NCBI GenBank assembly: GCA_964389725.1
Contig: CAYMDV010000004.1
Location: forward strand, 100,145 to 164,144
DNA: 64,000 nucleotides
Direction: 5' to 3'
Origin: an uncultured Anaerolineaceae bacterium
GTDB taxonomy: Bacteria; Chloroflexota; Dehalococcoidia; Tepidiformales; Tepidiformaceae
Below the pieces are notes generated by a model. The model was not told the DNA's origin and ran no database searches. It saw only the letters and a list, made by a program, of their open reading frames with translations. Positions 6,587-64,000 of the stretch are shown here, piece by piece. Numbering within the stretch: position 1 is the first letter of the stretch; each line of letters begins with the position of its first letter. Position numbers and translations under genes: made by a program.

Positions 6587-6588
6587 CG

Positions 6589-8280: not shown

Positions 8281-8289
8281 GTGCGCCTC

Positions 8290-12075: not shown

Positions 12076-12452
12076 GAGCCGTCGTTCCCGCCGTCCGTCA
12101 CGTCACGGTCCCGGGCGAGCTCGGCGATGGTGGAGGCGAGGCGCGCCCCCCGTTCGATGGATGGGTCGAAGCGGAAACTGAGTGAGGGCGTGCGGCGCAG
12201 GCGCAGGCGCCGTCGCAGTTCGCGTTCCAGGAACGCCGAGGCGCTCTGCAGCCCCGCGAGCGCTTCGTCGCGCTCCTCCGTGCTGCCGAGATGGGAGACG
12301 AACACCGATGCGGTCCGCAGGTCCGCGCTCACCTCCACCTCCGTGATGGTGAGGAACGCCCCTTCGAGGCGTGGATCCTTGAGCTCCCGCTGGACGAGCT
12401 CGCTGAGCTCCTCGCGGAGCAACTCGCTGACACGGCTGGTGCGCCGGCTCAT
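12072..12452 (-). CDS. rbfA: ribosome-binding factor A
   Basis: 126-aa ORF; RVSELLREELSELVQRELKDPRL...LTITEVEVSADLRTASVFV. Conserved position between infB and truB. Confidence 0.93.
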   Translation of the reverse strand: MSRRTSRVSELLREELSELVQRELKDPRLEGAFLTITEVEVSADLRTASVFVSHLGSTEERDEALAGLQSASAFLERELRRRLRLRRTPSLSFRFDPSIERGARLASTIAELARDRDVTDGGNDGS

Positions 12453-12476
12453 CGTGATTCCACCCGGGTCCGCGCC

Positions 12477-14249: not shown

Positions 14250-14542
14250 GCTTCCTCCGCGTCTCTGTCGGGAATGGCTTCCTGGTAACGCCGCAGGCCC
14301 TCGAGATCGCCGGAATTCGGGGTCATGCGGAGGGCCTTGCCTATCGTAGCGCCTTGCAGGGCCTGCTCCCAACACGAACGCGAGCGGTGCAGGTACGCGC
14401 CCCGCCCGGCGAGCCGCTTCCCCGGCGATTCCACCGCCACGCCCCCCTCGGGCGCCCGCACGATGCGCACGAGTCCGCGCTTCCCGGCTACCTCGCGGCA
14501 GCCGATGCAGGTGCGCTGCGGCTCATGGCGCGCGGCTGCCAT
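14246..14542 (-). CDS. ylxR: YlxR/RnpM family (DUF448) RNA-binding protein
   Basis: 98-aa ORF; PQRTCIGCREVAGKRGLVRIV...GRGAYLH. Conserved position between nusA and infB. Confidence 0.9.
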   Translation of the reverse strand: MAAARHEPQRTCIGCREVAGKRGLVRIVRAPEGGVAVESPGKRLAGRGAYLHRSRSCWEQALQGATIGKALRMTPNSGDLEGLRRYQEAIPDRDAEEA

Positions 14543-14550
14543 TCCCGTCC

Positions 14551-16092
14551 TCAGTGGATCCGGCCTGCGTAGTCGATGTCGTCCTCGAAGTCGTCCTCTT
14601 CCACGCGCGGGGCCCGGCGGCGGCGCCGGGGGCTGGGCTCCTCCTCGCGGGCCGGCAGGACATCCTCGGCAAAGCGGATGGCGGTCGGGCGTTCCTCCGG
14701 CACCACCAGCGTGGGCACCGTGTATTCCTCACCCTCGTCGTCGTCGAACTCTTCCTCGCCGTAGTCCTCTGCCTCGCGCGTTTCCTCGTCCGGGATTTCC
14801 ATCTCGGCAAGGGCCGCGGGGAAGAGCACGTCCTCCTCTTGCTGCGTCCCGGCCAGCGCTGCCGGCTCTTCAGCGGCGACTGCCGCCGCAGCCGCGGCCG
14901 CCGGAACGGCCACGGGCGGGCGCACCGGCTCGTCCACGATGGGCGGCAGGGGCTCGTCCGGAAGCTGCAGAATGTCGAGGTCCGGTTCGGTCCCCGGCGG
15001 GAACGCGTCGAAGGCCGCGGGCGCCTCCACGATCGCGGCGCCCTCTACCTCGCGCTCCGTCCCGGTCTGGCTGCGGACGCTGATGCGGTAGCCCGTCAGC
15101 TTCGCTGTCAGGCGCGCGTTCTGTCCCTCCTTGCCGATGGCCAGGGAGAGCATGGAATCGGGCACGACCACTGTCGCCTCCCGCGTGTCCTCGTCGAGCT
15201 GCACCTCGACCACCTGTGCCGGGCTGAGCGCGTTGGTCACGAAGTTCACCGGGTCCGCGTCCCACTTGATGATGTCGACCCGCTCCCCGCCGAGCTCGTT
15301 CACGACGTTCTGGATGCGCGATCCGCGCATCCCCACGCACGCCCCGATCGGGTCCACGCTGGCGGCGCGACCGTGCACCGCCACCTTGCTGCGATGTCCG
15401 CCCTCGCGCGCGATTGCCTTGACCTCGACGCGCCCCTGGGCGATCTCGGGAACCTCGACCTCCAGCAGGCGGCGCAGCAGGAGGCGGTGCCCCCGGCTCA
15501 CGATCACCTGCGGGCCCTTCACCTCGTCGTTCACCTCGAGCAGCAGCACCTTCACGCGCTGGCCGGCGCGCAGGTGCTCGTTGCGCACCATCTCGCTGCC
15601 GGGCAGGAGCGCTTCCGTCCCGCGCCCGATCTCGACCGTGGCCTGGCGGTTCTCGACCCGCTGGACCGTGGCCAGCAGCACCTCGCCCTGCTTGTCCGCG
15701 TACTCCTCGTAGATGGCGCCCCGCTCGGCCTCCCGCAGCCGCTGCAGCACGACCTGCTTGGCCGTCTGCGCGGCGATGCGGCCCGCGTTCTCGGGCGGTT
15801 TCACCTCGAACTCGAGGATGTCGTCGATGCGCGCGTCTGGCTTGTAGCGCTTCGCCTCTTCGATATCCATCTCGAGGTTCTCGTCCTCGACCGTGCGGAC
15901 CACGGTCTTCTGGATGAAGGCGCTGATGTCGCCCGTCTCGCCCGAGATGCGCACGTGCACCTCCGGGCCTTCCTCGCCATCCCGGCGGTAGGCGGAGGCC
16001 AGCGCGGACTCGACGGCCTGGAAGATCACCTCGCGCGCGAGGTTCTTCTCCGCCGCCAACTGGCTGATCGCAAGCAGGAAGTCGTTCTTCAT
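14551..16092 (-). CDS. nusA: transcription termination/antitermination factor NusA with long acidic low-complexity C-terminal tail
   Basis: Track ORF 14551..16119. ATG at 16092 (MKNDFLLAISQLAAEKNL...) has GGGAGA upstream. N-terminal, S1 and KH1/KH2 regions are present (ACVGMRGSRIQNVVNELGGERVDI; AIGKEGQNARLTAKLTG). The last ~170 aa are Ala/Pro/Glu/Asp-rich. Confidence 0.95.
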   Translation of the reverse strand: MKNDFLLAISQLAAEKNLAREVIFQAVESALASAYRRDGEEGPEVHVRISGETGDISAFIQKTVVRTVEDENLEMDIEEAKRYKPDARIDDILEFEVKPPENAGRIAAQTAKQVVLQRLREAERGAIYEEYADKQGEVLLATVQRVENRQATVEIGRGTEALLPGSEMVRNEHLRAGQRVKVLLLEVNDEVKGPQVIVSRGHRLLLRRLLEVEVPEIAQGRVEVKAIAREGGHRSKVAVHGRAASVDPIGACVGMRGSRIQNVVNELGGERVDIIKWDADPVNFVTNALSPAQVVEVQLDEDTREATVVVPDSMLSLAIGKEGQNARLTAKLTGYRISVRSQTGTEREVEGAAIVEAPAAFDAFPPGTEPDLDILQLPDEPLPPIVDEPVRPPVAVPAAAAAAAVAAEEPAALAGTQQEEDVLFPAALAEMEIPDEETREAEDYGEEEFDDDEGEEYTVPTLVVPEERPTAIRFAEDVLPAREEEPSPRRRRRAPRVEEDDFEDDIDYAGRIH

Positions 16093-16100
16093 CGTCTCCC

Positions 16101-16133
16101 AAACAAAAGAGGCGGGCACTGCCGCCCACCTCT
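16101..16133 (-). terminator. intrinsic terminator/attenuator hairpin plus U-tract between ldh and nusA
   Basis: Reverse strand reads AGAGGTGGGC-GGCAGT-GCCCGCCTCT followed by TTTGTTTGG. This is a 10-bp stem with one mismatch and a 6-nt loop. The T-rich tract ends about 10 nt before the nusA ATG. It is the clearest hairpin+T-tract in the window. Confidence 0.55.
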
Positions 16134-16155
16134 CCCCAAAGGATTGGCCTCATGC

Positions 16156-16164
16156 ACTATAGCA
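16156..16164 (-). promoter_or_regulatory. putative extended -10 promoter element (TGCTATAGT) upstream of the nusA leader
   Basis: Reverse strand reads TGCTATAGT (TGn + TATAGT) about 20 nt upstream of the hairpin. The same TGCTATA core occurs upstream of ftsH (26967). No good -35 element was seen. Confidence 0.35.
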
Positions 16165-16173
16165 GAACCGCCC

Positions 16174-17271
16174 TTAGCGGGCTCCCGATCCCGTCCTTGG
16201 ACGGCGTGGCACACGGGCGTGCAGACCGCCCACCTCGCGGATGCGCCGGTCCGCCCGCGCGATGGCTTCCTCCAGCGGTGTGACCCCTGCCTGGCGGGCG
16301 CGCTCGAGTACGTCGGTTACCGTCCCCTCAATGGCGTCGACCCGCCGGTTCGCGCGGTCTTCGCGGTAGTCGCGCCCCACCTCCTCCGCCAGATTCACGA
16401 CTCCCCCCGCGTTCACGATGAAGTCCGGCACGTAGAGGATGCCGCGCCCGGCGAGCTCATCCGCGAGCTCGTCGCTGGCGAGCTGGTTGTTGGCGCTGCC
16501 GAGGACGGCGGCGCAGCGCAGCGCGGGGAGCGTCTCGGGGTTGATGGCCCCACCGAGGGCGCACGGCGCGTACACGTCGCACGCCGTCGCGTGGATCGCG
16601 CCCGGGTCGGCCACCTCCGCCCCCGTCTCGCTCGCCAGCGCGGCCACGGCCTCCTCGTTCACGTCCGCGACCGTCAGGCAGGCGCCCGCCTCGGCGAGCA
16701 TCCGTGCGAAGGCGCCACCCACCTTCCCCACCCCCTGGATGGCGACGTGCCGGCCCGTCAGGTCGGGCCCGTCCCAGAGCGAGCGCGCAGCCCCGCGCAT
16801 GGCCGCCATCAGTCCCCGTGCGGTCGTGGGCGAAGGGTCGCCCGAGCCGCCCGCGTCGTGCGAGGCGCCCGTCACGTAGGCGGTCTCGCGCGCGATCGTC
16901 TCCATGTCCGCGATCGTCGTGCCCACGTCCTCGGCGGTCACGTACGCCCCGCCCAGCGACTGCACGGCGCGCCCGTAGGCCCGCAGCAACCGCTCGGACT
17001 TGTCCTGTCGCGGGTCGCCGATGATGACGCCCTTCCCCCCGCCGAAGTCGAGCCCCGCGGCGGCGTTCTTGCGGGTCATGGCCCGCGAGAGCCGAAGGGC
17101 GTCGGCGAGGGCGTCCTCCTCGGAGTCGTATGGGTAGAAGCGCGTGCCCCCGAGCGCCGGCCCGAGGACGGTAGAGTGGACGGCGATGATGGCCCTCAGG
17201 CCCGACTCGCCATCGCGCGCGAAGAGAATCTGCTCGTGACCGCCCTCATCGGCGGCGGCGAAGACCTTCAT
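16174..17271 (-). CDS. leucine dehydrogenase (Glu/Leu/Phe/Val dehydrogenase family)
   Basis: In-frame ATG at 17271 within track ORF 16174..17739: MKVFAAADEGGHEQILF...GPALGGTRFYPY...AAAGLDFGGGKGVIIGDP...VAIQGVGKVGG. The catalytic Lys motif and Rossmann GxGxxG are typical of Leu/Val dehydrogenases. Confidence 0.9.
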   Translation of the reverse strand: MKVFAAADEGGHEQILFARDGESGLRAIIAVHSTVLGPALGGTRFYPYDSEEDALADALRLSRAMTRKNAAAGLDFGGGKGVIIGDPRQDKSERLLRAYGRAVQSLGGAYVTAEDVGTTIADMETIARETAYVTGASHDAGGSGDPSPTTARGLMAAMRGAARSLWDGPDLTGRHVAIQGVGKVGGAFARMLAEAGACLTVADVNEEAVAALASETGAEVADPGAIHATACDVYAPCALGGAINPETLPALRCAAVLGSANNQLASDELADELAGRGILYVPDFIVNAGGVVNLAEEVGRDYREDRANRRVDAIEGTVTDVLERARQAGVTPLEEAIARADRRIREVGGLHARVPRRPRTGSGAR

Positions 17272-17332
17272 GGCTTCGATCGTAGCGCAGCCACCGGCAT
17301 GCGGCCTCAATCGGTGCACGGCGGGTAAAGCA

Positions 17333-18097
17333 ATGCCGGCCGAGGTGATCGCGGCGGAGATCGAGCGCGTCCTGCGGGCCGAGGGCGATCCTCGCCGCGC
17401 CGTGGGGCAGCAGGCCGACCGCGAGAAGCACATCCCCAATCCCCCGGGGCCGGGCCTCGGCCTCGAATACCTGGGCGCGACCGTTCCGCTGGTCCGGAGC
17501 ACGACGAAGGCAGCGCTGCGCGCGCACCCGGTGAAACGGCGCGAGGAGCTGGTGGCGTTGGCCGAACGCCTCTGGGACGCCGGCGTGTACGACCTGAGAC
17601 TGGCGGCTATCGATGCCCTGAGGGTGCACATCAGGCTGCTTGCCGAGGAGGACCTGGCGGTGCTCGAGCGGTTCGTGCGCGAGGCGCAGACATGGGCGCT
17701 GCTCGACACCCTCTCGATCAGCGTGCTCGCCCCGCTCATCGAGCGCTTCCCGGCGCTCGTGGGAACGCTGGACCGGTGGGCGGAGGACGACGACTTCTGG
17801 GTTCGGCGCCAGGCGATGCTGAGCCTGCTGCCCGCCCTCCGCCGAGGCGAGGGCGACTTCGACCGCTTCGTGCGCTACGCCGACGCCATGCTCGAGGAGC
17901 GCGAGTTCTTCATCCGCAAGGTTATCGGCTGGATCCTGCGCGAGGTCAGCAAGAGGCGCCCCCGGCTGGTCACGGAGTGGCTGGCCCCGCGCACGGGTCG
18001 GGCCTCGGGCGTGACCTTCCGGGAAGCGGTGAAGTACCTGCCCCCGGACGATCGCGAGCGCCTCACCGCCGCCTTCCGCGAAGGCCGCCCGGCCTGA
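17333..18097 (+). CDS. DNA alkylation repair protein (AlkC/AlkD-like HEAT-repeat family)
   Basis: Track ORF 17270..18097. I prefer ATG at 17333 (MPAEVIAAEIERVL...). The C-terminal pattern WAEDDDFWVRRQAML...EFFIRKVIGWILRE is characteristic of the PF08713-type family. Confidence 0.85.
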   Translation: MPAEVIAAEIERVLRAEGDPRRAVGQQADREKHIPNPPGPGLGLEYLGATVPLVRSTTKAALRAHPVKRREELVALAERLWDAGVYDLRLAAIDALRVHIRLLAEEDLAVLERFVREAQTWALLDTLSISVLAPLIERFPALVGTLDRWAEDDDFWVRRQAMLSLLPALRRGEGDFDRFVRYADAMLEEREFFIRKVIGWILREVSKRRPRLVTEWLAPRTGRASGVTFREAVKYLPPDDRERLTAAFREGRPA

Positions 18098-18100
18098 GGG

Positions 18101-20536
18101 TCAGTTCGCCTCGGTGGCCGTCTCCAGGAAGGGCTTGGCCGCGATCGCGACGCCCCGGTGCTCCGGCTTCTGCAGCAGCGGATCCCGCGCGAGGATGCGG
18201 CGCGCCAGCTCCCGCGCGTCCGTGAGCAGGTCCCGGTCCGTCACCCGCGCCACGCGCAGCATCCCGTTGCCGCCGCTCTGGGCCATGCCCCAGGCCTCGC
18301 CTTCCCCCCGCATCTCCAGGTCCACCTCCGCCAGCTCGAAGCCATCGGTTGTGCGTTCCATCGCCCGCAGGCGGTTCTGGGCCTCGGGGCCGGGCTCCTC
18401 GTCGCTGCTGAAGAGCAGGCAGTAGCCCTGCCGGTGGGAGCGCCCCACCCGCCCCCGGAACTGGTGCAGCTGGCTCAACCCGAAGCGTTCCGCCCCCTCG
18501 ATCACGATCGTGGTCGCGTTGGGCACGTCGATCCCTACCTCCACCACGCTCGTCGAGACCAGCACCTGTGTCTCGCCCGCCTCGAAGCGCGTCATCACCT
18601 CGTCCTTCTGGCGGCCGCGCATGCGTCCGTGCAGCAGGTCGAGCCGGTAGGCAGCGAGCGGCCCGCTCCGCAGCCGTGCGAACTCCTCCTCCGCCGAGCG
18701 CACATCGAGCGCCTCCGATTCGTCCACGAGCGGGCAGATCACGAACGCCTGCTCTCCCGCGTCCAGCCGCTCCTGAAGGAAGTCGTACGCCTCCTCTCGC
18801 TCCTGCGGCTCGACCCACGTGGTCGTGACCGGCAGCCGCCCGGGGGGAAGCTCGTCGATCGTCGAGACCTCCAGGTCGCCGTACGCCGTCAGCGCGAGCG
18901 TGCGGGGGATGGGCGTCGCCGTCATCACGAGCAGGTGGGGGTTGGCGCCCTTCTGGCGCAGCCGCGCACGCTGGTCGACCCCAAAGCGGTGCTGCTCGTC
19001 GACGACGGCGAGCGCGAGGCGCGGCAACTCCACCCCCTCCTCGATGATGGCGTGCGTGCCGATCACGAGGTCGGCGCCGCCGTGCGCGGCCGCGTCGCGC
19101 ACGCGCTGCTTCTCCGCCGCCGTTCGCGATCCCGTCAGGAGCGCGACCCGCAGCGGCCGCCCCCCGAGCCACTCAGGCGCGAACATCCCCTCGAAGGCGG
19201 ACTCCCCGCCGCCGAGCAGGTTCATCAGCGAGCGGTAGTGCTGCTCCGCGAGGATCTCGGTGGGCGCCATCAGCGCCGCCTGCCTCCCCGCCGCGACGGC
19301 GGCGAGCATGGCCGCGAAGGCCACGACCGTCTTGCCGCTTCCCACCTCGCCCTGCAGCAGCCGCAGCATCGGCACGCGCTTCGCGATGTCGGCCAGGATC
19401 TCGTCGAGCGCACTCCGCTGCGCGCCGGTGAGCGTGAACGGAAGCGACCCCAGGTACCCCTCGAGCTGGGCGCTGAAGTCGAGCTCGGGGGCCTGCTGGT
19501 CGAGCTGCCACGCCGCCCGCCGCTGGAGCACCGCCGCCTGGATCGCGAGGAACTCCCCGAGCGCGAGCCGCTTGCGGGCGTGCTCGGCCTCCCCCGGCGC
19601 CTCCGGCTCGTGGAATGCGCGCACGCAGTCGCCGTACGGCTCCAGCCCCTCCGCCTTCGCCAGCCACCCCGGCACCGGGTCGGGCAGCCGCCCGGCGAGC
19701 TGCTCCACCGCGAACGCGACCGCCTTCCGGATCGTTCGCTGCCCCAGCCCCTGCGTCCCCGGGTAGATCGGCAGCAGCTTCCCCGGGCGCATCACCTCCG
19801 AGTCGAACGGCTCGTACTCGGGCGGGTTGGCCATCTGCAGCCGGCCCCGGTACACGGTCACCGTTCCGGAGACTGCCAGCTCCTCGCCTTCCTTCAGTCC
19901 CCGGTGCACCCACGGCATGTTGAACCAGACGATCCGGAGCGACCCCGAGCCATCGTTGATGACCGCCTCGCTGCCCCGCACCCGCCGCCCGTAGCGCATC
20001 TGCCCGGACTTCAGGATCGTGCCGACCACGGTCTTGGGGAGCCCGTCCGGTTCAAGGTCGGAGATTCGGCGCACATCGGTGAAGTCGCGGAAGCGGCGGG
20101 GGAAGAAGAGCGCCGCGTCTCCGGCGGTCGTCACGCCCAGCTTCTCGAAGCGCTCCGCGGCGTTCTTCCCGATGCCGGGCAGGCGGGTCACGGGGTCGCC
20201 GGGCTCGAGGGGGCGCTTCGAGGCGCTCGCCGCCCGCCTCGGGGCAGGCTCCTCCCCGCCCCCCGGTCCGGTCGCGATGATCGCTCCTTCGAGCCATCGG
20301 CGGCGTCCCTCGGGGTTGAGCCCGCGGTAGCCCTTGCCCCGCTGCAGGCCCCGGATCCGTTCGTACAGCGGATGGCCCCTCGCGACCACGCCGTCCTCGA
20401 TCAGCCGGATGAGCAACGCGTCGATGCCGCCCGGAATCTCGCCCGCCGCCGAGCCGTCCTCAAGCTCGCGCCGGAAGAGGTCGCGCAGTCGGGAGAGCTC
20501 GGAGTCGGCCGATTGCGTCGAAGGGCCTGCCGTCAA
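18101..20536 (-). CDS. recG: ATP-dependent DNA helicase RecG
   Basis: 811-aa ORF. Wedge/OB region, helicase motifs LLQGEVGSGKT, DEQHRFGV, MTATPIPRT, QLHQFRGRVGRS. Has a ~110-aa N-terminal extension. 4-nt overlap with the upstream degV. Confidence 0.95.
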   Translation of the reverse strand: MTAGPSTQSADSELSRLRDLFRRELEDGSAAGEIPGGIDALLIRLIEDGVVARGHPLYERIRGLQRGKGYRGLNPEGRRRWLEGAIIATGPGGGEEPAPRRAASASKRPLEPGDPVTRLPGIGKNAAERFEKLGVTTAGDAALFFPRRFRDFTDVRRISDLEPDGLPKTVVGTILKSGQMRYGRRVRGSEAVINDGSGSLRIVWFNMPWVHRGLKEGEELAVSGTVTVYRGRLQMANPPEYEPFDSEVMRPGKLLPIYPGTQGLGQRTIRKAVAFAVEQLAGRLPDPVPGWLAKAEGLEPYGDCVRAFHEPEAPGEAEHARKRLALGEFLAIQAAVLQRRAAWQLDQQAPELDFSAQLEGYLGSLPFTLTGAQRSALDEILADIAKRVPMLRLLQGEVGSGKTVVAFAAMLAAVAAGRQAALMAPTEILAEQHYRSLMNLLGGGESAFEGMFAPEWLGGRPLRVALLTGSRTAAEKQRVRDAAAHGGADLVIGTHAIIEEGVELPRLALAVVDEQHRFGVDQRARLRQKGANPHLLVMTATPIPRTLALTAYGDLEVSTIDELPPGRLPVTTTWVEPQEREEAYDFLQERLDAGEQAFVICPLVDESEALDVRSAEEEFARLRSGPLAAYRLDLLHGRMRGRQKDEVMTRFEAGETQVLVSTSVVEVGIDVPNATTIVIEGAERFGLSQLHQFRGRVGRSHRQGYCLLFSSDEEPGPEAQNRLRAMERTTDGFELAEVDLEMRGEGEAWGMAQSGGNGMLRVARVTDRDLLTDARELARRILARDPLLQKPEHRGVAIAAKPFLETATEAN

Positions 20537-56920: not shown

Positions 56921-56949
56921 TAAGGGAGCCAGGCTCGCCCCGGCCCTTA
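56921..56949 (-). terminator. possible terminator hairpin overlapping the ImmA-like gene stop codon
   Basis: Reverse strand: TAAGGGCC-GGGGCGAGCCT-GG(CT)CCCTTA. This gives 6+2 bp with a 2-nt bulge. There is no U-tract, so support is weak. Confidence 0.2.
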
Positions 56950-57825
56950 TCGATGTTCGGGAAGACCTGGCTGGAGCGCAGCCGTTCTCGCCGGACTGCG
57001 TCGCTGTAGCGAGCGGGCTCCCATTTCGATTTCAACCAGCACCTGCCGCTGGTCATCGCGCAAGGGAACGCAGGTGACGACAGCGTGACGGTAACTGTGG
57101 GAGCCTCGAGGGAGCCGTCCCTGCTTGGTTGGCAGTTGCATGGGCGTCGATACCTCAGGAGTGAGCACGTCCTCGATTCCGAGACTCTGCGTCGTCAGTT
57201 GCTCTAGCTGTCGATACGTGGTCCGGTCATAGGCCCCCGAACGTACTCGGTAGTCACCGTGAGCATCGACCTCGCACATTAGCAGTATGCAGTCGGCACC
57301 CATAAGCGAAAGGTCATCCAAACGGATCATTGATGCCTGAAGCGACACCCCAAACTCATCGGCCAATTTGCGAAGCGCCGACAGGCGGGAGAGGTTCCTA
57401 TGGTGCCGAAGCGATCTCTTGAAAGTTTCTCCGGGCATGAGAAGCGCAGCGGCAAACTTGTCGCATCGCGTCTCTTCTTCCTGAGAGTAAGTGCGTGCGT
57501 CTGCCCCATCAACGCCGAAAATCAAGTGGTGTCCAAGTTCGTGCGCTAATGTGAATCGCTGTCGCTGCAGGCCCTCCCTCGTGCTCAACGCGATGCGAAG
57601 GCCAACGCTTGTCCACTCAATCCGACCGGACTCCGAGAGGGCCGTGGCTTGCACGACCTCGATGCCTTCGGATGTGGCTAAGTCGTGGACATTGACGGGT
57701 CCGCCAGAATCTCGAAGCAAACGCGAACCAAGCGTGTCCCCAAGTTGAATGGCGGCACGACGGCCCTTCTCGCCGTTACTAAGGTCCGCGGCCGTGCTCT
57801 GCCTCTTCTTGGGTAGCCTGATCAT
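56947..57825 (-). CDS. ImmA/IrrE family (COG2856, peptidase M78) zinc metallopeptidase with C-terminal extension
   Basis: 292-aa ORF. HExxH active site in RQRFTLAHELGHHLIF, downstream E (EETRCDKFAAALLMP). About 130-aa C-terminal domain of unknown type. The ATG (57825-57823) directly abuts the TGA of the upstream HD gene. Low G+C. Confidence 0.85.
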   Translation of the reverse strand: MIRLPKKRQSTAADLSNGEKGRRAAIQLGDTLGSRLLRDSGGPVNVHDLATSEGIEVVQATALSESGRIEWTSVGLRIALSTREGLQRQRFTLAHELGHHLIFGVDGADARTYSQEEETRCDKFAAALLMPGETFKRSLRHHRNLSRLSALRKLADEFGVSLQASMIRLDDLSLMGADCILLMCEVDAHGDYRVRSGAYDRTTYRQLEQLTTQSLGIEDVLTPEVSTPMQLPTKQGRLPRGSHSYRHAVVTCVPLRDDQRQVLVEIEMGARSLQRRSPARTAALQPGLPEHR

Positions 57826-59808
57826 TCAAAGGAGCCTGCCGGATCCAGCGCCATCCAAGTACTCTCGGACAGCCAGCTCGAAGGCAAGCTTCGCAGGATC
57901 AGTCTCATCTGTCGCGCCGCCTCCTCGTCGGGCCGCTGGGCCCTTCCCCAGCTTGGCGCGGAAGCGATCTTCAAAGTCGTGGGGCGACTCGTGGATTGTG
58001 CCCAACACTCGGTCGAGGTCAGATGGCGCCTCCAAGACTCCATCGGCCAACTCGTCGAGGAATAGGGCCAGGTTTAGGCGAGCGACCCCTTCGTCCGTAT
58101 CGAGAGCGAATTCCTGCTGGCCCACCATCGCCGTGGAGCCTGCAGCCGCAGCAACGGTGGCGTGGAGTTCTGGATGTTCAATGCTGATACGCTCTCTCCC
58201 CCTCCACTGCGATAGCCTGTCCTCGCTGTGTTGTCTCGGGCTCGCTGCCGAGTCCCACTCGCTAATTCCGAGCTTCTCCTGAAGGCTAGCCAGAACCACC
58301 GTGCGCTGGTGGTCTGAGAGTCGGGGGTCTACGTAAACGCGCATTGCCCAGAGCCCGTGGTGGCTCTCGATAATCTCCGAGCCTCGTGCCCCGTTCGCCC
58401 GGTCCCATGTCTCGAGCGAGACGATTTCGCTTGGCGACCCATCGTCCACCAGCACGTCGGCTGGCTTAAGGCGCATCGCTGGGTTAGGCACCCAGAGCGC
58501 AACCATCCACCCGTGCTCCGCACCTGCCCGGCGGGCTGCGTATCGCTCTACGTCGGCCCTTGCCTTGGGGTCGCGGTAACGTTGATAAAGTCTGTCTCCC
58601 ATGTGTCTCTTTGTGTATTCGCCGATCGGCTTGAAGAGCCTGCGCCTCTGAAGCTGTTTCACGATGTCTGCGACACCCTCCCAGGGTCCATGCGAATCAC
58701 GTTGCCCAGCCTCGTACAGCATGTGCTCAAGCAATCCGTCGTCCCCTCGTCGCAGTGCTTCCGCTTCGATTCGCTCCTTTGCATCAACACCGGAATCCTC
58801 TTCCGCGAGGGCGGTCTCCCACATCTCCATCGCTTTTCCGACCATCACGTCAGCTGCGAGTTTGGCATGGTGGACTAACGCGCGCTCGCTCAGTTCGTAG
58901 CGATAGCGCAAGTACTTGAAGAGCTCGGAGACAACGTCGGCTCGTTGCCGGTTGCCCCTAGTGATCCGAATCACCATGCGGCGCGGATAGTCTGAGTGGT
59001 CCGACCGGGTGACATAGAACCCGTCAAGAAACCTACTACCAAATGCGGCCGGCAAGCCTGTGTGCAGATGGTCTCGCTGAAGGTAGTCAATCAGGTCCGC
59101 ACAGATGGTATTGCCAACAAGGTCATAGACGAACGGGTACTTCTTGGGTATCGACTGAGCCTGGCCAGACTTCGAGAGGATGAGGGGCTTCAGTTGCTCG
59201 GTCAGTTCCTTTGGCACCTTGATCCCATGCCGTGCGACGTCTGACGGCTCGTTCAGATCGGCCTCGATAGCATCCCAGAGGGTCTCGTAACGCTCTTCGT
59301 TCGCATCATGTGATCTGAAGAATCCCAGGTCATCTTCCAAAGTGTGACCAAACGGAACATGACCGAGGTCGTGCAAGAGCCCGCCCAGCCGAGCAAGGAC
59401 CGTAGCCTCACCCACCATTCGTTGAAACTCTTCGGGGGTCTCGTTCTCACGCCACTGTTCGAAGAGGTCAGGGATGGGGTGTCTCTCCGCCCCCTGCCGC
59501 AAGACTACGTCCATGAGATCCTGCGCTGCGCGGAGAGTACCTAGCGCATGGGAGAAACGCGTGTGCGTGGCACTCGGATACACCAACTGGGTAGTTCCGA
59601 GTTGGCGCACCCGTCGCAGTCGCTGGAGCGAAGCAGTGTCGAGAACAGCGGTCTCGAGCACGGTGAGGTAGATGTCCCCATGGATTGGGTCAGTGATCTG
59701 CTTATGAGGGTGTAGCCACTCCGAGGGTAAGCCCCACGGCCGGGCCTTGAGTTGTTCCTCGGTCAGTCCCCACTTAGGCAAGAGCACGCCCCCAAAGCCA
59801 TGATACAT
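57826..59808 (-). CDS. SAMHD1-like HD-domain deoxynucleoside triphosphate triphosphohydrolase-family protein with ~310-aa uncharacterised C-terminal region
   Basis: 660-aa ORF. ITDPIHGDIYLTVLE, LQRLRRVRQLG, VYPSATHTRFSHALGT (H), LLHDLGHVPFGH (HD...H), ICADLIDYLQRDHLHTG (D). This is the SAMHD1/dGTPase HD motif order. GAGAGGG lies upstream of the ATG. Low G+C. Confidence 0.85.
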   Translation of the reverse strand: MYHGFGGVLLPKWGLTEEQLKARPWGLPSEWLHPHKQITDPIHGDIYLTVLETAVLDTASLQRLRRVRQLGTTQLVYPSATHTRFSHALGTLRAAQDLMDVVLRQGAERHPIPDLFEQWRENETPEEFQRMVGEATVLARLGGLLHDLGHVPFGHTLEDDLGFFRSHDANEERYETLWDAIEADLNEPSDVARHGIKVPKELTEQLKPLILSKSGQAQSIPKKYPFVYDLVGNTICADLIDYLQRDHLHTGLPAAFGSRFLDGFYVTRSDHSDYPRRMVIRITRGNRQRADVVSELFKYLRYRYELSERALVHHAKLAADVMVGKAMEMWETALAEEDSGVDAKERIEAEALRRGDDGLLEHMLYEAGQRDSHGPWEGVADIVKQLQRRRLFKPIGEYTKRHMGDRLYQRYRDPKARADVERYAARRAGAEHGWMVALWVPNPAMRLKPADVLVDDGSPSEIVSLETWDRANGARGSEIIESHHGLWAMRVYVDPRLSDHQRTVVLASLQEKLGISEWDSAASPRQHSEDRLSQWRGRERISIEHPELHATVAAAAGSTAMVGQQEFALDTDEGVARLNLALFLDELADGVLEAPSDLDRVLGTIHESPHDFEDRFRAKLGKGPAARRGGGATDETDPAKLAFELAVREYLDGAGSGRLL

Positions 59809-59845
59809 CCTGCCCTCTCGGGGCCACTGCTGAACGGCCCCTGCC

Positions 59846-59934
59846 CGTGACTAGGACGTGACCTCCTCGGATACGCTCACGTGTTCTATCCATTATGCTA
59901 TTGAGGGCCTTGGTGGCCTGCGAAGGCACAGGCC
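59846..59934. promoter_or_regulatory. divergent control region between HD/ImmA operon and SIR2-APAZ/pAgo operon with repeated CGTGA motifs and back-to-back -10-like boxes
   Basis: CGTGAC occurs at 59846-51 and 59857-62 (11-bp spacing), with an inverted TCACG at 59877-81. TGCTATTGA (59896-59904, + strand, same TGCTAT core as the nusA and ftsH elements) overlaps CATAAT on the - strand (59897-59892). Inverted repeat GGCCTG-N8-CAGGCC lies at 59915-59934. Confidence 0.25.
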
Positions 59935-59995
59935 TCAGCGCCGCTCCGCGACTAAGTCTTCTCGTCTTGTCGCTCAAAACTGAGGAGCTCGCCTC

Positions 59996-61894
59996 TTGCC
60001 CGGATCGGCAACTGTGAGAAACCCTACAAACCCCGACTCGGACCACATCCTAGCTGGACAGCCCGAGCTTGCTGCCTTCGCTCGGAGCTTCTCGCAGCGA
60101 GCGCCGCGACTTGCCTGGTTCCTCGGTGCGGGTGCTAGTGCCCAGTCGTTCGTCCCCACGGCTGAACAACTGGTCGACGTTCTGTTGCGACAAATCTACT
60201 GCACCGAGCGCGGCGTTCCGGTCGACTCGATTGACTTGGGGGACCGTCATCAACGCCGAAGGCTGCATGAGATATACAGCGGTCAAGAGGGCCTCTCCCT
60301 TGATGGCGATCCGAGCTTCTACTCGGAGGTCTTTGAGCGTGCCTACGCGAGCCCGCAGGACCGGGCGGCATTCATCGAGAGTCAGGTACGGGAGGCTGCT
60401 CCAAACTATGGCCATCAGGTGCTGGCGGCGCTTGTTGCAGCAAACTCCCTGCGGCTCGTTGCCACCACCAACTTCGATCCGCTCATCGAGCGGGCGATCA
60501 ATCCGCTGCTTGACGGCCAGTTGTTGGATGGCCGCCAACTCGATGTAGCAGATCTTGACAATCCAGGCAGAGTGGCCAGGGCTCTGTCAGCCGATCGATG
60601 GCCTCTCCTCGTGAAGCTGCACGGGGACTACCGCTCTGACGACCTCAAGAACATTTCGACAGAACTTCAGGAGCAGGACGAGGAACTGCGGCGCACGATG
60701 ACTAGCGCCCTGTCTCGACTTGGTTTGGTGGTCGTTGGCTACAGCGGTCGTGACGAGTCGATTATCAACATGCTTCAGGACGTGCTCGCTTTGCCAACGC
60801 CGTTCCCGGCTGGCTTGGTCTGGGTGAAGCGTCCGCAAGACGCGCTGCTGCCATCCGTCGCGGACCTGTTGTCCAATGCGCAGGCGGCGGGCGTGGAGAC
60901 ATCCATCGTGACTGCTAGTTCCTTCGTAGACCTCACGACGCGAATTCAGCAGGCGATGACGCTGCCGACGCCCGTTAGACAGTGGCTTTCTGCGAGGGCT
61001 CCAACGCTGACTCGTCGGGCCGAGACAGCCGTTAAGGGGCCAACGGGCACAGGGCCCATCCTTCAGCTCAACGCTCTTCCCGTTGAACAACTCCCCTCTA
61101 AGGCCAGACGCCTCGAGTGGGCCGCCAATCCCGTTTCGATAGATAGCCTCCGCGAGGCGCTACGTGGCCCCGAGCGGAACGCTCTGGTGGGCCTGGTGAG
61201 CGGCACTGCCGCAGCGTTTGGACAAGACTCGACCCTACGGGCAGCACTTGTCGGTGCTGGGGTTCGGGTTACCGATGCCTACGAGTCACTCGACCTAGGT
61301 GCTGACGACTCAGGCGAAGTGGATACTCAGGCCCTTGGTCTTGTCACGGATGCCTTAGTTGTCGGGCTCGCAAGGCTGCGAGGTCTCAGGCCTGTGTTGC
61401 GTCGCCATCGGCCACACCTGCTCCGAGTTATCCGTCCGAACGACCCAGCTCTTCAGCCGTTGAATCGAGCTTGTGGCGGTCCACTGAGGGGAGAAATCCA
61501 CCACCGCGCCTCCGGTCTCCGACTTCCGTGGGCAGAGGCAGTCTCGGCCAATCTGGAGCGGAGACATGGCCAGTGGTGGCTGCTACTCAACCCAGAAATC
61601 TGGACTCGGCGCGAACCGCTCCCAGGGGATGGCGGGGCACCCCCTTCGCACGCCGAACTTGGCGCGCTTCTCGACCAGCGCAAGGAGTTCATTCGAGAGA
61701 GGAACGCAAAGCGGTACAACCGGCAGACGGGGGAAATCTTGACGGCGTGGATGGAAATCCTGACTGGGGGCCAGCGGGCCGAAATCAGGACGTTCGGCCT
61801 GCAAGGTGGCGCAGGCATCGATGCAGGCTTCGTGCTGGACGGTAGGGCTGCGACTAGTCTTCCGCTTCTCTCTCGAAACGGATCACGAGACTAA
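59996..61894 (+). CDS. SIR2-APAZ protein (NADase effector partner of short pAgo; SPARSA-type)
   Basis: 632-aa ORF. The start is uncertain (TTG 59996 or GTG 60014). SIR2_2-type motifs: LAWFLGAGASAQSFVPT (Rossmann G-A-G-x-S), LVATTNFDPLIERA (catalytic Asn region), LLVKLHGDYRSDD (catalytic His), VVVGYSGRDESI. The C-terminal ~330 aa matches the expected APAZ position. Its stop overlaps the pAgo ATG (TAATG). Confidence 0.85.
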   Translation: MPGSATVRNPTNPDSDHILAGQPELAAFARSFSQRAPRLAWFLGAGASAQSFVPTAEQLVDVLLRQIYCTERGVPVDSIDLGDRHQRRRLHEIYSGQEGLSLDGDPSFYSEVFERAYASPQDRAAFIESQVREAAPNYGHQVLAALVAANSLRLVATTNFDPLIERAINPLLDGQLLDGRQLDVADLDNPGRVARALSADRWPLLVKLHGDYRSDDLKNISTELQEQDEELRRTMTSALSRLGLVVVGYSGRDESIINMLQDVLALPTPFPAGLVWVKRPQDALLPSVADLLSNAQAAGVETSIVTASSFVDLTTRIQQAMTLPTPVRQWLSARAPTLTRRAETAVKGPTGTGPILQLNALPVEQLPSKARRLEWAANPVSIDSLREALRGPERNALVGLVSGTAAAFGQDSTLRAALVGAGVRVTDAYESLDLGADDSGEVDTQALGLVTDALVVGLARLRGLRPVLRRHRPHLLRVIRPNDPALQPLNRACGGPLRGEIHHRASGLRLPWAEAVSANLERRHGQWWLLLNPEIWTRREPLPGDGGAPPSHAELGALLDQRKEFIRERNAKRYNRQTGEILTAWMEILTGGQRAEIRTFGLQGGAGIDAGFVLDGRAATSLPLLSRNGSRD

Positions 61895-63321
61895 TGCCGG
61901 GAAGCCTCGTCGACCTCGCTCCGTACGTCGTCATCCCAGAACCGCTGTTGAGCTTCGACCCCGTCGATCCTTCCCAGCGGGCCCTCAATCCTCAGGTCGG
62001 CCTCCTCAGGCATGGTCCGTTTTCGGCTCGCAATTGGCCTGAAGAAGAAGCCGCCGTGCGAGTCGCAATGCTCTCGCCCGAGGACGACCTGCAGAAGCTA
62101 AAGGATCTGTTGAACGAGATTCATTCCAGACAGCGTGTCATCGAGAGACGTCCCTACCTTCCCGACTACCCCGGCTTTCGCGGCGCATTCCACTGTCCGA
62201 TCGTTCCTGCAGCCGAAGCCGCCCAAGTCTCGCTACCCTCTGACTTGGATGACCGCTTCGAGGGCGCGCTCGAGCCACATGGCGAATTAGTGGCAACCTT
62301 CTCTCACAGCCTGCGCCAACTCAAGGCCGTCCAATCGCTGTTCGATGTCGTCGTCTTCTACCTGCCCAAGAGGTGGCAGCGTGCGTTCGTCGTAGGGGAT
62401 TTCGACTTGCACGACGCGATCAAGGCCGACGCAGCTCAATTGGGCCTGCCAACGCAGATTGTCACGGACGACGCCATCGAGTACCGCTGTAGGGCGAGCG
62501 TCGCTTGGCGCCTTGGCCAAGCGTTGTACGCCAAAGCAGGGGGTGTGCCCTACAAGCTTGCCACGAACACTGGGCTCCTCGACGCTGACGCTGCCTTTGT
62601 AGGCCTTGCCTATGCAACGCGGAAACGCGATGACGGGGCGACCGCGTTCACGGTGTGTGCTAGCCAGATTTTTGACTCCGCAGGCGGTGGTATGGACTTC
62701 GTCGCCTTTGAAGTCTCAGATGATGTGGATCCAGAGAACCCCCTTCTCAGTCGAGAGCAAATGCGCGGCGTCATATCAGCGACCCTAGGGGTCTACGCCG
62801 ACCGTACGTCGGGCCACCGTCCACGCCGGCTTGTTGTCCACAAAGTGCTCCCGTTCACAGAGGAGGAAGTTGCTGGCTGCGCCGACGCATGGGGCGAGGG
62901 CACGGACCTCGAGTGCATCAGCCTCTCGCGGTCCCCCTGGCTTGGCGTTGAACTGATGCCAGGTGGGACAGGGCAGTGGAGCTATGCCATGCGTCGAGGG
63001 ACACTGTTGCCACTGGATGACTTCAGTCGGCTTATCTGGGTGGCGGGGAATGCTCCTTCGGCCACCTTGTCAGGCAAGGCAAACTACTTTCAGTCCGGCA
63101 AAGGCGTGCCGCGACCGCTCCTGATGACCCGTTGGGCGGGTACTGGCGACCTTACCCAAGCAGCAACCGAGGTCTTGGCGCTAAGTAAGATCGACTGGAA
63201 CAACGATGCGCTCTACGACGCCATCCCGGTGACTGTGCGATATGCCCAGATCCTTGCCAGAGTGGTGAAGCACGTTCCTGCTCTGCCCCAGATCCCCTTC
63301 GACTACCGGCTCTTCATGTAG
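61894..63321 (+). CDS. short prokaryotic Argonaute (MID-PIWI only)
   Basis: 475-aa ORF, too short for the N/PAZ domains. MID-like 5'-end pocket pattern H173-x3-K177 (FDLHDAIKAD), Q188 (LPTQIV), K214 (ALYAKAGGVPYKL). The PIWI-like C-terminal half ends in a hydrophobic tail (...PFDYRLFM). I could not locate a DEDX tetrad by eye. Operonic with the SIR2-APAZ gene. Confidence 0.85.
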   Translation: MPGSLVDLAPYVVIPEPLLSFDPVDPSQRALNPQVGLLRHGPFSARNWPEEEAAVRVAMLSPEDDLQKLKDLLNEIHSRQRVIERRPYLPDYPGFRGAFHCPIVPAAEAAQVSLPSDLDDRFEGALEPHGELVATFSHSLRQLKAVQSLFDVVVFYLPKRWQRAFVVGDFDLHDAIKADAAQLGLPTQIVTDDAIEYRCRASVAWRLGQALYAKAGGVPYKLATNTGLLDADAAFVGLAYATRKRDDGATAFTVCASQIFDSAGGGMDFVAFEVSDDVDPENPLLSREQMRGVISATLGVYADRTSGHRPRRLVVHKVLPFTEEEVAGCADAWGEGTDLECISLSRSPWLGVELMPGGTGQWSYAMRRGTLLPLDDFSRLIWVAGNAPSATLSGKANYFQSGKGVPRPLLMTRWAGTGDLTQAATEVLALSKIDWNNDALYDAIPVTVRYAQILARVVKHVPALPQIPFDYRLFM

Positions 63322-63728: not shown

Positions 63729-64000
63729 GTGACCGCGACCCAGGACGCCAACAGCGCCACGACCGGCTACGAGGCCGAGCTGTGGGGGATGGCCGACGCC
63801 CTCCGCGGGAGCATGGACGCGGCCGAGTACAAGCACGTCGTTCTCGGGCTTATCTTCCTCAAGTACATCTCCGACGCCTTCGAGGAGGCCCACGCCAGGC
63901 TCGTGTCGGAGCAGGACCAGGGGGCCGACCCCGAGGACCCCGACGAGTACCGCGCCCAGAGCATCTTCTGGGTGCCGCCGGAGGCGCGCTGGGCGTACCT
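63729..64000 (+). CDS. hsdM: type I restriction-modification system methyltransferase subunit HsdM (5' part; continues beyond window)
   Basis: Not in the ORF track because it is open at the window edge. GTG at 63729 is the first start after an in-frame TAG (63717-19). My translation: [58 protein letters not shown]...[15 protein letters not shown]. This is the classic HsdM N-terminal domain. Confidence 0.85.

Follow-up and report, generated by a model that had tools for sequence, protein, structure and literature searches.

Two adjacent genes on the minus strand of the window (the whole stretch of DNA analysed, 64,000 nucleotides) encode an HD protein that resembles SAMHD1 and is probably a dNTP triphosphohydrolase, and an M78 zinc metallopeptidase. 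The first-pass annotation had read a 660-aa HD frame running from 59808 to 57826 and a 292-aa M78 frame with an intact HExxH, and both were recovered exactly so, with every motif string that it quoted present in the translations. The junction (...CTC CTT TGA ATG ATC...) agrees with its description as well, the start codon of the peptidase gene abutting the stop codon of the HD gene. The features of the region are as follows.

56947..57825, minus: gene for an IrrE/PprI/CapP-type M78 zinc metallopeptidase, 292 aa (ORF, Pfam, PADLOC, Foldseek)
56998..57300, minus: predicted GAF/PAS-like C-terminal domain of the peptidase, residues ~176-276 (Foldseek, five predicted beta-strands)
57301..57705, minus: peptidase domain, residues ~41-175 (invariant columns)
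57826..59808, minus: HD gene, 660 aa, SAMHD1-like, probable dNTP triphosphohydrolase (ORF)
57829..58248, minus: C-terminal extension of the HD protein, residues 521-660 (tail lengths across 88 homologues)
57856..58008, minus: tail-motif region (EM motif search)
58249..59706, minus: SAMHD1-type catalytic core, residues ~35-520 (HMMER alignment and Foldseek)
59728..59778, minus: N-terminal motif PKWGLTxxQxxxxPWGL, residues 11-27 (alignments, homologue N-termini)
59781, minus: alternative TTG start of the HD gene, N-terminus MPKWGLT
59809..59995, no strand: 187-bp intergenic region between the HD and SIR2-APAZ genes (ORF coordinates; both promoters presumed)
59996..63321, plus: short pAgo system (SIR2-APAZ 59996-61894, short pAgo 61894-63321)
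63729..64000, plus: N-terminus of an HsdM-like type I restriction-modification gene, running past the window end

The HD gene may start at the TTG at 59781, which gives the N-terminus found in most close homologues. The low G+C noted earlier for this region was borne out, at 0.59-0.63 over 57-63 kb versus ~0.70 elsewhere in the window, and the neighbours are also those first described: PADLOC identified the divergent SIR2-APAZ/short pAgo genes (Aga_SIR2-PNTD1-PNTD2 at 1.2e-142 and pAgo_I at 3.7e-156), and a type I gene begins near 63729, probably HsdM as its N-terminal motif suggests. A consensus scan of 59809..59995 returned neither a sigma-70-like site nor an inverted repeat, so the promoters are placed there by presumption.

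The profile searches proposed for HD and Peptidase_M78 detected both domains. In the 660-aa protein the Pfam HD match (PF01966) scores 27.3 bits, and solved SAMHD1 structures match it by sequence at E 1e-16 to 3e-19 (HMMER), with ~20% identity to SAMHD1/EF1143. Its AlphaFold2 (AF2) model (pLDDT 90.9) has SAMHD1 or EF1143 throughout as top Foldseek matches, sharing the fold over ~500 residues, with ~540 columns aligned to SAMHD1 and a target-normalised TM of 0.65-0.72. The motifs and the Pfam match uphold the SAMHD1/dGTPase-type signature that had been assigned, but not its extent of ~340 aa: the fold spans residues ~35-520, and the ~310 aa beyond, in which no motif had been recognised, do include a known part, the SAMHD1 C-lobe at residues 340-520. 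The conserved core residues are R84, H87, H146, D147, H150, H155, E158, H167, D238, Y242, D246 and R303; the full catalytic His, Asp, Glu and Arg set of SAMHD1/EF1143 is present and invariant among 88 homologues (24- and 88-sequence alignments). In the HMMER alignment the conserved D57, Q62 and R65 match D137, Q142 and R145 of SAMHD1 allosteric site 1, and K36 matches K116. The position of SAMHD1 Y374, a residue with a role in sugar selection, is a valine, so substrate specificity cannot be read from the HD sequence. The protein most likely lowers dNTP pools as a dNTP triphosphohydrolase.

Several traits set the HD protein apart from known enzymes of its superfamily. It lacks the SAM domain of SAMHD1, and compared with SAMHD1/EF1143 it adds the PKWGLT...PWGL element (or an XRE HTH), a tail motif and an obligate M78 neighbour. 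Within the M78-linked clade the N-terminal motif, modelled at pLDDT 93-97, is specific to the core members, and generic SAMHD1-like proteins are without it. The ~140-aa C-terminal extension occurs only in the closest subclade, has no Pfam match at E<=10 and is predicted as a beta-hairpin and five helices. Stand-alone anti-phage dGTPases (Dgt-like; PADLOC dGTPase, NCBIfam NF003701) are likewise HD-superfamily nucleotide-depleting effectors in defence islands, but they have no protease partner, and their models cover only ~100 N-terminal residues of the HD protein at 17-25 bits, versus curated cut-offs of 152-439 bits; the HD protein belongs to another branch of the superfamily (HD_assoc_2, PF19276).

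The partner protein matches Pfam Peptidase_M78 (PF06114) at 63.4 bits (2.3e-17) and the PADLOC capP model at 8.8e-26. Its AF2 model (pLDDT 87.8) matches the PprI-ssDNA complex 8sln, IrrE 3dte and CapP 7t5t over their full length, and has three parts: the zinc peptidase domain, helices in the middle and a domain of GAF-like fold. The C-terminal domain (~130 aa) called "extra" earlier, here put at ~120 aa, is the usual one of IrrE/PprI/CapP; its Foldseek matches are the IrrE and CapP GAF domains as well as isolated GAF, PAS and LOV domains. The HExxH is H95-E96-x-x-H99 (nt 57529-57543, minus strand), E118 sits in EETRCDKFAAALLMP (nt 57433-57477), and the invariant alignment columns are T92, A94, H95, E96, H99 and E118. 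Among the partner peptidases HExxH is kept in 35 of 35 and the third zinc-ligand motif in most. R88 occupies the position of CapP R90, a ssDNA-binding residue (PMC13228613), and the peptidase domain is without a cysteine-switch loop, as is IrrE. Judged from its model, this is an ordinary three-domain IrrE/CapP-type protease, and a probable DNA-damage-sensing one; with their catalytic residues intact, both enzymes look active.

HD and M78 form a genuine, conserved unit of two genes, and the pairing goes beyond chance. The coupling proposed from the window alone recurs among homologues: with clade membership defined as a custom-HMM score of >=180 bits, an adjacent M78 gene was found at ~36 of 39 assessable non-redundant HD-clade loci, down to ~28% identity, versus none within 8 kb at ~125 loci of generic ~430-aa SAMHD1-like genes. 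Three clade members (L011, L013 and L095) are missing the neighbour. The hosts belong to at least six phyla, including Chloroflexota, Actinomycetota, Planctomycetota, Gammaproteobacteria, Acidobacteriota and Myxococcota. Gene order varies, with the two genes convergent in ~8 loci. Distances among the HD proteins track those among the partner peptidases (Mantel r 0.54, p<=0.0005) and the protein trees are congruent, as expected of co-inherited proteins. HD and M78 are the sole recurring genes across the loci, with no conserved third gene. The lack of an HTH partner noted in the window held in the wider set, where Xre-type HTHs were found in 3 of 149 small flanking ORFs (<=3 of 33 loci); XRE genes adjoin the pair in L168 and L171. 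The distribution is patchy: a scan of 185,579 species representatives with two peptide patterns only gave, as a lower bound, at least about ten clade matches among the 80 loci listed. Searches of plasmids and phages returned no member of the clade.

The claim that no named system has this architecture agreed with our searches: neither PADLOC v2 (PADLOC-DB dated 2023) nor NCBIfam has a model for the pair, and it is not described in the literature searched.

A location in defence islands is clear at some loci. The pair is flanked by MzaC/MzaD and IetA/IetS in L169, adjoins DpdF/PsyrT-like and GajB-like helicases and a methyltransferase in L003, and lies within an integrase/TrwC element in L170. 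At other loci it is not: several clade members have metabolic genes around them, on large contigs of chromosomal origin, and one actinobacterial group (L007, L008, L092) shows conserved synteny. These contexts leave a defence role likely. The metabolic and syntenic contexts fit a housekeeping stress role equally well as defence.

Two features point to a direct link between protease and enzyme. One is a family tail motif, xx[IV]AA[RHY]xGxxT[FY]EDL[VL] (in shorter form AA[R/H/Y]xGxxT[F/Y]xxL[V/L]), present in most clade members; in the EM motif search its log-likelihood was 659.7 versus 273±7 in shuffled tails, and 0 of 110 generic HD tails scored >=10. The subclade to which the window's protein belongs has a rearranged motif with two candidate copies: VLGTIHESPHDFEDRF (residues 601-616), the site that the motif finder aligned to the family motif, and the motif-like PAARRGGG...LAFELAV (residues 624-647), modelled as a low-confidence loop followed by a helix (pLDDT 60-71 for residues 621-640). 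IrrE cuts DdrO at IEL/RGKRPRD, ahead of helix alpha8 (PMC6868357), and CapP cuts CapH at F82/R83, ahead of a peptidase-docking helix (PMC13228613). The layout of the tail motif, a loop and then an amphipathic terminal helix, resembles these sites, but the arginine position varies (R, H, Y, A or K), which makes its correspondence with the P1' arginine of DdrO and CapH a partial one. We infer that the tail region is a candidate recognition or cleavage site, although the motif could be an oligomerisation or docking element instead.

The other feature is an N-terminal XRE-type HTH of ~68 aa, fused to HD in the representatives of five clusters within the clade. On the N-terminus of one of these (P0272) Pfam HTH_3 reaches 27.1 bits, over its cut-off, and the gene has a 325-aa M78 gene after it. 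Among the XRE-family structures matched by a profile built from the five sequences is 7t8i (E 0.0011), an Xre-family regulator of ICEBs1 that we take to be ImmR; for the HTH chain 7t5u, presumably CapH given that its entry number neighbours that of CapP 7t5t, the E of 0.016 exceeds the customary cut-off of 0.001. The tail motif and the fusions lend indirect support to the suggestion that the protease clips the C-terminal region of the dNTPase; the long extension, being subclade-specific, is excluded as a general regulatory element.

We propose, with a probability of roughly 0.5, that the pair is a nucleotide-depletion module gated by proteolysis, with the HD protein as the substrate. In characterised relatives the protease is activated by ssDNA from DNA damage or phage replication and then cuts its XRE-type substrate, a repressor such as DdrO, CapH or ImmR, immediately before the terminal helix. 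CapP-CapH, IrrE/PprI-DdrO and ImmA-ImmR have in common with this pair the three-part protease architecture with its zinc site, and a basic residue where CapP has R90, but there a separate repressor gene is the partner, whereas here the conserved partner is an enzyme. We infer dNTPase activity, ssDNA sensing, the HD substrate, the cut site, activation by cutting and the antiviral role. By analogy with the relatives, ssDNA would switch the M78 protease on; the HD enzyme, replacing the missing XRE repressor as substrate, would be recognised and cut, most probably in the C-terminal tail motif, or in one branch be recognised through the fused XRE domain; the cut would lift the restraint on the enzyme and leave an active dNTPase, whose depletion of dNTPs would halt replication of the invading DNA.

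Both halves of this scheme have precedents. Clover, a defence system of two genes, pairs the CloA dNTPase with a dedicated regulatory partner, the nucleotidyltransferase CloB (PMC12265719). That partner makes an inhibitory nucleotide; with a zinc protease in its place, as here, control would be irreversible, by proteolysis. Effectors licensed by a protease are widespread among defence systems, and modules with MBL, alpha/beta-hydrolase, Pepco, EACC1, gasdermin and other effectors share the logic proposed here: an adjacent protease cuts the latent effector at one particular site, in many cases within the tail (10.1101/2025.11.14.688446). The MBL-clade proteases are trypsin-like, caspase-like or subtilisin-like and usually sensor-fused, and the ten effector families surveyed include neither M78 proteases nor HD/dNTPase effectors (10.1101/2025.11.14.688446).

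The M78 protein might instead restrain a constitutively toxic HD dNTPase by binding or continuous cleavage, infection removing or inhibiting the protease and freeing the enzyme, as in a toxin-antitoxin pair like RosmerTA (RmrT toxin, RmrA HTH-M78 antitoxin), where an M78 protein also meets a variable, potentially toxic partner in variable order. The M78 domain does match the PADLOC RmrA models (E 2e-14 to 3e-7) and, weakly, the NCBIfam spr1629 repressor/antitoxin model, the unit is compact and variable in order, and ImmA-type domains act as a hub antitoxin for many toxins (PMC10440598, a paper in which we found no mention of HD enzymes). We consider this unlikely, however: the RmrA matches are limited to the peptidase core, the N-terminal HTH of RmrA is absent and a GAF-like domain stands at the C-terminus instead, the full-length structural matches are to the ssDNA-activated IrrE/PprI and CapP, GAF-like domain included, and convergent loci are unusual for toxin-antitoxin pairs. 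Just as doubtful is a housekeeping damage response without a defence role, in which the HD enzyme keeps dNTP pools low and a ssDNA-activated protease destroys it, letting pools rise for repair. IrrE/PprI, itself stimulated by ssDNA, indeed controls a DNA-repair response (PMC13228613, PMC10904395), and the chromosomal metabolic settings, the actinobacterial synteny and the failure to find the clade on plasmids or phages would suit it; the very patchy distribution, the low-G+C island of the window, the company of Mza, IetAS, pAgo, restriction-modification and integrase/TrwC genes, and a spread over at least six phyla with congruent HD and M78 trees argue against it.

A purely transcriptional role, with the protease acting on an unlinked or missed XRE repressor of the HD gene and the HD protein never its substrate, appears more improbable still. 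It is the sole mechanism demonstrated to date for the M78 protease family, XRE genes do adjoin the pair at two loci, and Deinococcus irrE and ddrO are not known to be adjacent. Against it, XRE genes are not conserved beside the pair (3 of 149 small flanking ORFs), and one branch carries the XRE domain within the HD protein itself, as a fusion. Moreover, CapH and CapP characteristically lie together, upstream-divergent of their operon, whereas in this pair the protease gene either follows the HD gene in the same direction or converges with it, and the M78 partners all co-evolve with the HD protein.

With proteolytic gating of the HD enzyme as the preferred reading, the pair would be a self-contained two-gene module, mobile between genomes. 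The recurrent pairing points to an unnamed switch of two genes, probably antiviral, with the enzyme itself as the target of the protease.

Both open reading frames of the proposed two-gene module were recovered on the minus strand, every HD and M78 motif quoted by the first-pass annotation was found in the translations, and the reported TGA/ATG abutment was borne out by a junction reading CTT TGA ATG ATC. Pfam matched HD PF01966 (27.3 bits) in the 660-aa SAMHD1-like product (the HD protein) and Peptidase_M78 PF06114 (63.4 bits) in the 292-aa peptidase (the M78 protein). The low G+C ascribed to the pair holds from ~57 kb to the end of the window (0.59-0.63 vs ~0.70 elsewhere), and the divergent pAgo system consists of a SIR2-APAZ gene and a short pAgo gene (PADLOC E values of 1e-142 and 4e-156). 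The genes are arranged as follows.

56947..57825, minus strand, M78 peptidase gene, 292-aa ORF
57826..59808, minus strand, HD gene, 660-aa ORF
59996-61894, plus strand, SIR2-APAZ gene (PADLOC), its stop overlapping the start of the short pAgo gene
61894-63321, plus strand, short pAgo gene (PADLOC)

An ORF starting near 63729 is presumably the N-terminus of a type I HsdM-like gene. The low-G+C island, which holds the pair, the SIR2-APAZ/short pAgo genes and this HsdM-like start, begins just downstream of a nitrite-reductase-like gene ending at 56735. Within 59779-59808, the annotated ATG of the HD gene adds nine residues, MYHGFGGVL, that are absent from most homologues; the true start may be the TTG at 59781, which would give MPKWGLT, the usual N-terminus of close homologues.

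The sequence of the HD protein matched solved SAMHD1 structures over residues 35-398/420 (E 3e-19 to 1e-13). When its AlphaFold2 model (88-sequence alignment; pLDDT 90.9, pTM 0.81) was searched with Foldseek, all 50 matches listed were SAMHD1 or its Enterococcus homologue EF1143 (E ~1e-14, ~510-550 columns, target-normalised TM 0.65-0.72), and the catalytic core is accordingly modelled with a SAMHD1/EF1143-type fold. Since this fold reaches approximately residue 520, most of the ~310 aa previously described as lacking any recognisable motif corresponds to the SAMHD1 C-lobe, and only residues ~521-660 are truly additional. That extension is confined to the closest subclade, most homologues having a ~65-aa tail, and Pfam at E<=10 gave no match in the last 140 aa, the last 240 aa or the first 35 aa.

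At the active site, R84, H87, H146, D147, H150 and H155 align with SAMHD1 R164, H167, H206, D207, H210 and H215, while E158, H167, D238, Y242 and D246 align with D218, H233, D311, Y315 and D319; these eleven catalytic and metal residues are invariant or nearly so among 88 homologues. By this alignment the HD-domain metal and catalytic set (H...HD...D and a His/Glu or His/Asp dyad) is present. Residues D57, Q62, R65 and K36, conserved at >=90%, align with SAMHD1 D137, Q142, R145 and K116, of which D137, Q142 and R145 belong to allosteric site 1 of SAMHD1. By its profile scores the HD protein falls outside the Dgt-like anti-phage dGTPase family, scoring 17-25 bits against cut-offs of 152-439 (TIGR01353, 24.8 bits, cut-off 152; NF003701, 17.3 bits, cut-off 383), and the PADLOC dGTPase model gave 22 bits over residues 55-161 only. 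One member of the HD protein's clade, P0240 (843 aa), is extended at its N-terminus by ~330 aa in which Pfam found nothing and which contain no M78 domain; its active-site stretch is altered (LLHDVGRLPFADVLEGE), with residues other than histidine at the H150 and H155 positions, and the protein may have lost catalytic activity.

The top PADLOC match of the M78 protein was capP (8.8e-26). Its AlphaFold2 model (pLDDT 87.8) matched 8sln (full-length Deinococcus PprI bound to ssDNA), 3dte (IrrE), 8slm and 7t5t (CapP) over 259-287 columns (E 5e-12 to 2e-9), and the C-terminal part also matched isolated GAF, PAS and LOV domains. The protein is thus predicted to have a peptidase, helical linker and C-terminal GAF-like domain architecture, and these matches identify the ~130-aa C-terminal domain, which had been singled out as an extra, as the ordinary GAF-like domain of the IrrE/PprI/CapP family. 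The HExxH is intact as noted before: H95, E96 and H99, together with E118, show no variation across an alignment of 30 sequences, and the motif is kept in 35/35 of the peptidases encoded beside related HD genes. R88 occupies the position of the ssDNA-binding R90 of CapP and of R85 of IrrE. We looked for the cysteine-switch loop of the CapP subtype, and the loop IFGVDGADARTYSQEE between the HExxH and the third zinc ligand contains no cysteine, as is also the case in IrrE; C121 is part of E..C[DN], a motif of M78 proteins in general.

A word-indexed search returned 1155 HD homologues, and a profile search of 1.84 billion cluster representatives returned 15,427 SAMHD1-like proteins at E<=1e-3, of which 1020, mostly from soil metagenomes, lay at E<=1e-30, an upper figure that may include some generic SAMHD1-like proteins. 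Named hosts include Chloroflexota, Actinomycetota, Planctomycetota, Gammaproteobacteria, Acidobacteriota and Myxococcota, and tblastn against plasmid and phage collections yielded only generic HD genes at <=31% identity and no clade member. We compared 80 loci from species-representative genomes, 80 metagenomic loci and ten obtained by exact look-up, using profiles built for this analysis. The HD proteins fell into two score groups, a clade at >=180 bits (~560-790 aa) and generic proteins at <=150 bits (~430 aa), the latter mostly from Nitrososphaeria, Bacillota and cyanobacteria. The pairing seen in the window proved to be a property of the clade: an M78 gene lies directly beside the HD gene in ~36/39 assessable non-redundant clade loci, whereas none lies within 8 kb in ~125 generic loci (0/~125), the M78 assignment of the clade partners being confirmed by Pfam for a sample. 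Pairwise distances of HD proteins and partners are correlated (Mantel r 0.54, against at most 0.26 in 2000 permutations). Given the pairing counts, the recurrence and the co-variation across loci, chance adjacency is very unlikely. When neighbourhood frames were compared all against all by BLAST in search of a third conserved gene, only HD and M78 recurred, other genes common to clade neighbourhoods reflecting lineage-specific synteny; no natural HD-M78 fusion was found among long homologues. The clade loci in which an M78 neighbour is missing are listed here.

L011, 8001-9757, HD gene frameshifted
L013, 7997-10140, HD gene with a NUDIX hydrolase gene directly downstream
L095, 482-3868, HD gene with an MFS transporter gene downstream

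Most commonly the HD gene is followed by a co-directional M78 gene that overlaps or abuts it. A convergent arrangement, with abutting or overlapping stop codons, occurs in L007, L008, L089-L093 and L170; these are mostly actinobacterial-type contigs in which the stops abut or overlap by up to ~35 nt, suggesting an overlap of 3' ends and perhaps antisense effects. Coordinates of convergent M78 genes are given below.

L007, 5793-6797, convergent M78 gene
L008, 9904-10704, convergent M78 gene
L170, 11865-12725, convergent M78 gene

An M78-like ORF upstream of the HD gene and ending at its start was seen in L087 (931-1836) and L171 (9322-9915). Both ORFs keep the HExxH but not the E..C[DN]..LL.P motif, and from their sequences they are possibly degenerate or truncated. 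The M78-like ORF of L171 adjoins a minus-strand XRE-HTH gene (9037-9594).

Characterised IrrE/CapP-type relatives cleave a nearby-encoded XRE-type repressor (CapH, DdrO, ImmR). The first-pass annotation had found no HTH ORF beside the pair, and indeed there is none in the window. Among 149 small flanking ORFs from 33 loci, three matched an XRE-type HTH, and because only these three did so we ruled out a hidden Xre partner as the explanation of the protease. The gene arrangement also differs from that of CapH/CapP, in which the repressor gene is adjacent to and divergent from the regulated operon. Regulation of the neighbouring pAgo operon by the pair in the manner of CapH/CapP was likewise rejected, since pAgo adjoins the pair in this locus alone.

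Five more distant clade representatives (P0272, P0288, P0254, P0295 and P0289) carry a ~68-aa N-terminal extension. The N-terminus of P0272 by itself matched Pfam HTH_3 (27.1 bits, cut-off 23), and a profile of the five extensions matched structures of the XRE family, among them 7t8i (E 0.0011), an Xre-family regulator of ICEBs1 that we take to be ImmR. Weaker matches, beyond the usual 0.001 cut-off, included SinR, HipB and the HTH chain 7t5u (E 0.016), which is probably CapH, its entry number being adjacent to that of CapP 7t5t. On two independent contigs the next gene after that of P0272 encodes an M78 protein of 325 aa; RuvC-like, NspV-like and 599-aa genes come after the two.

L172, 1668-4571, P0272 locus (HTH fused to HD)
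L173, 355-3258, P0272 locus (HTH fused to HD)

By domain content, then, the domain that usually marks the protease substrate is in this branch part of the HD protein. Of the evidence available, this fusion hints most strongly at a direct partnership between the protease and the HD protein.

Expectation-maximisation on the C-terminal 90 residues of each of 105 non-redundant proteins of the clade gave the motif xx[IV]AA[RHY]xGxxT[FY]EDL[VL], typically 30-50 residues before the C-terminus, with a log-likelihood of 659.7 vs 273+-7 (maximum 292) for shuffled tails. A score >=10 was reached by 0/110 generic HD tails vs 54% of clade tails, the latter figure being biased upward as the motif had been trained on these same tails. 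Visual inspection shows the motif in the HTH-fused branch too, as with EIARGDSTAGPPSYDALEKHL in P0272. In the HD protein of the window it lies at residues 601-616 (IHESPHDFEDRF), and a second motif-like copy, PAARRGGG...LAFELAV, at 624-647, has a loop with a pLDDT of 60-71 followed by a confidently modelled helix. IrrE cleaves DdrO in IEL/RGKRPRD, ahead of helix alpha8 (PMC6868357), and CapP cleaves CapH at F82/R83, ahead of a helix whose predicted docking site is a hydrophobic peptidase surface (PMC13228613); the HD tail has the same layout of a flexible loop and then a terminal amphipathic helix. Reading the tail as A-A/R-G, like the L/R-G of DdrO, was not upheld by the motif model, which allows several residues there, arginine among them; with the arginine variable, the analogy with DdrO and CapH holds only in part.

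The pair lies among defence genes in the window, in L169 and in L003; in L005, L166 and L167 the surroundings are mainly metabolic with scattered toxin-antitoxin genes. In L169 the pair lies between MzaC/MzaD and IetA/IetS homologues and is part of a dense defence island (1-19033), in which DNA methylase, DUF6339, DUF4420/MzaD-like and Z1/MzaC-like genes come before it and genes for IetS/IetA homologues, an AAA_16 and a Fic protein after it. In L003 it adjoins DpdF/PsyrT-like and GajB-like helicases and a large methyltransferase, and in L171 an RHS toxin and a protein carrying the Pfam domains MrcB_N and NOV_C are encoded nearby. In L170 it lies at the border of an integrase/TrwC/SSB element (1-15706) that has inserted beside parAB-gidB, close to the replication origin, and a nucleoside 2-deoxyribosyltransferase-like gene is immediately upstream of the HD gene. 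L007, L008 and L092 share synteny. With contexts this mixed, the association of the pair with defence is suggestive, not uniform.

We propose, with a probability of about 0.5, that the module is a proteolysis-gated nucleotide-depletion system. ssDNA arising from infection or damage would be sensed by the IrrE/CapP-type protease, which would cleave the SAMHD1-like enzyme, most likely within the tail motif, with the N-terminal HTH, where present, serving recognition; the enzyme, made active by cleavage, would deplete dNTPs and block replication of the invader. The conserved adjacency, the co-inheritance, the tail motif and the HTH fusions all count, indirectly, in favour of such effector cleavage. 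The protease might instead act as an antitoxin in a Rosmer-like manner, which we consider unlikely; RmrA of RosmerTA has an N-terminal HTH fused to its M78 domain, unlike the M78 protein here, in which Pfam found no HTH and which RmrA models match only at residues ~80-180 (model positions ~180-300). A housekeeping response to damage, with cleavage serving to remove the dNTPase, seems to us improbable to a similar degree, and purely transcriptional control through an unlinked repressor even more so.

The first-pass annotation knew of no named system with this architecture, and in agreement with this PADLOC-DB v2 (2023) contains no model for it and the June 2026 release of NCBIfam no dedicated one. 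The HD-M78 combination is not among the systems reported as CapH/CapP-associated, and we found no system joining an HD/dNTPase with M78/ImmA/CapP in the openly accessible full-text literature searched. Its parts are of known kinds, namely SAMHD1-type dNTPases, IrrE/CapP/ImmA proteases, protease-licensed effectors and partner-regulated dNTPase effectors; the novelty is the combination of the HD enzyme and the M78 protease. Protease-licensed effectors were surveyed by Evans et al. (10.1101/2025.11.14.688446), and the HD-M78 combination is absent from their ten protease-associated effector families. Clover joins a dNTPase effector to a regulatory partner (PMC12265719), but that partner, CloB, is a Pol-beta-type nucleotidyltransferase, whereas the only conserved neighbour of the HD clade is an M78 peptidase. 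The wider claim, that an ssDNA-sensing IrrE/CapP-family protease has an enzyme, not a transcriptional repressor, as its substrate and that cleavage of a SAMHD1-like dNTPase, set off by damage or infection, licenses depletion in a new, widespread anti-phage family, stays in our judgement somewhat short of an even chance.

Depletion of nucleotides by dNTPases is an antiviral strategy common to bacteria and animals. One recently described way of keeping the bacterial enzymes harmless until needed is the nucleotide-signalling partner of Clover; the HD-M78 module suggests a second, proteolytic one. If so, it would add a directly cleaved effector enzyme to the repressors that the IrrE/CapP/ImmA family cuts, with the HTH fusions as a plausible evolutionary route from repressor substrate to enzyme substrate. 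The module would then represent a new anti-phage family of up to ~1000 protein clusters at 50% identity, its size offering many orthologues for study, and a bacterial counterpart of the proteolytic control of SAMHD1 in animal cells.
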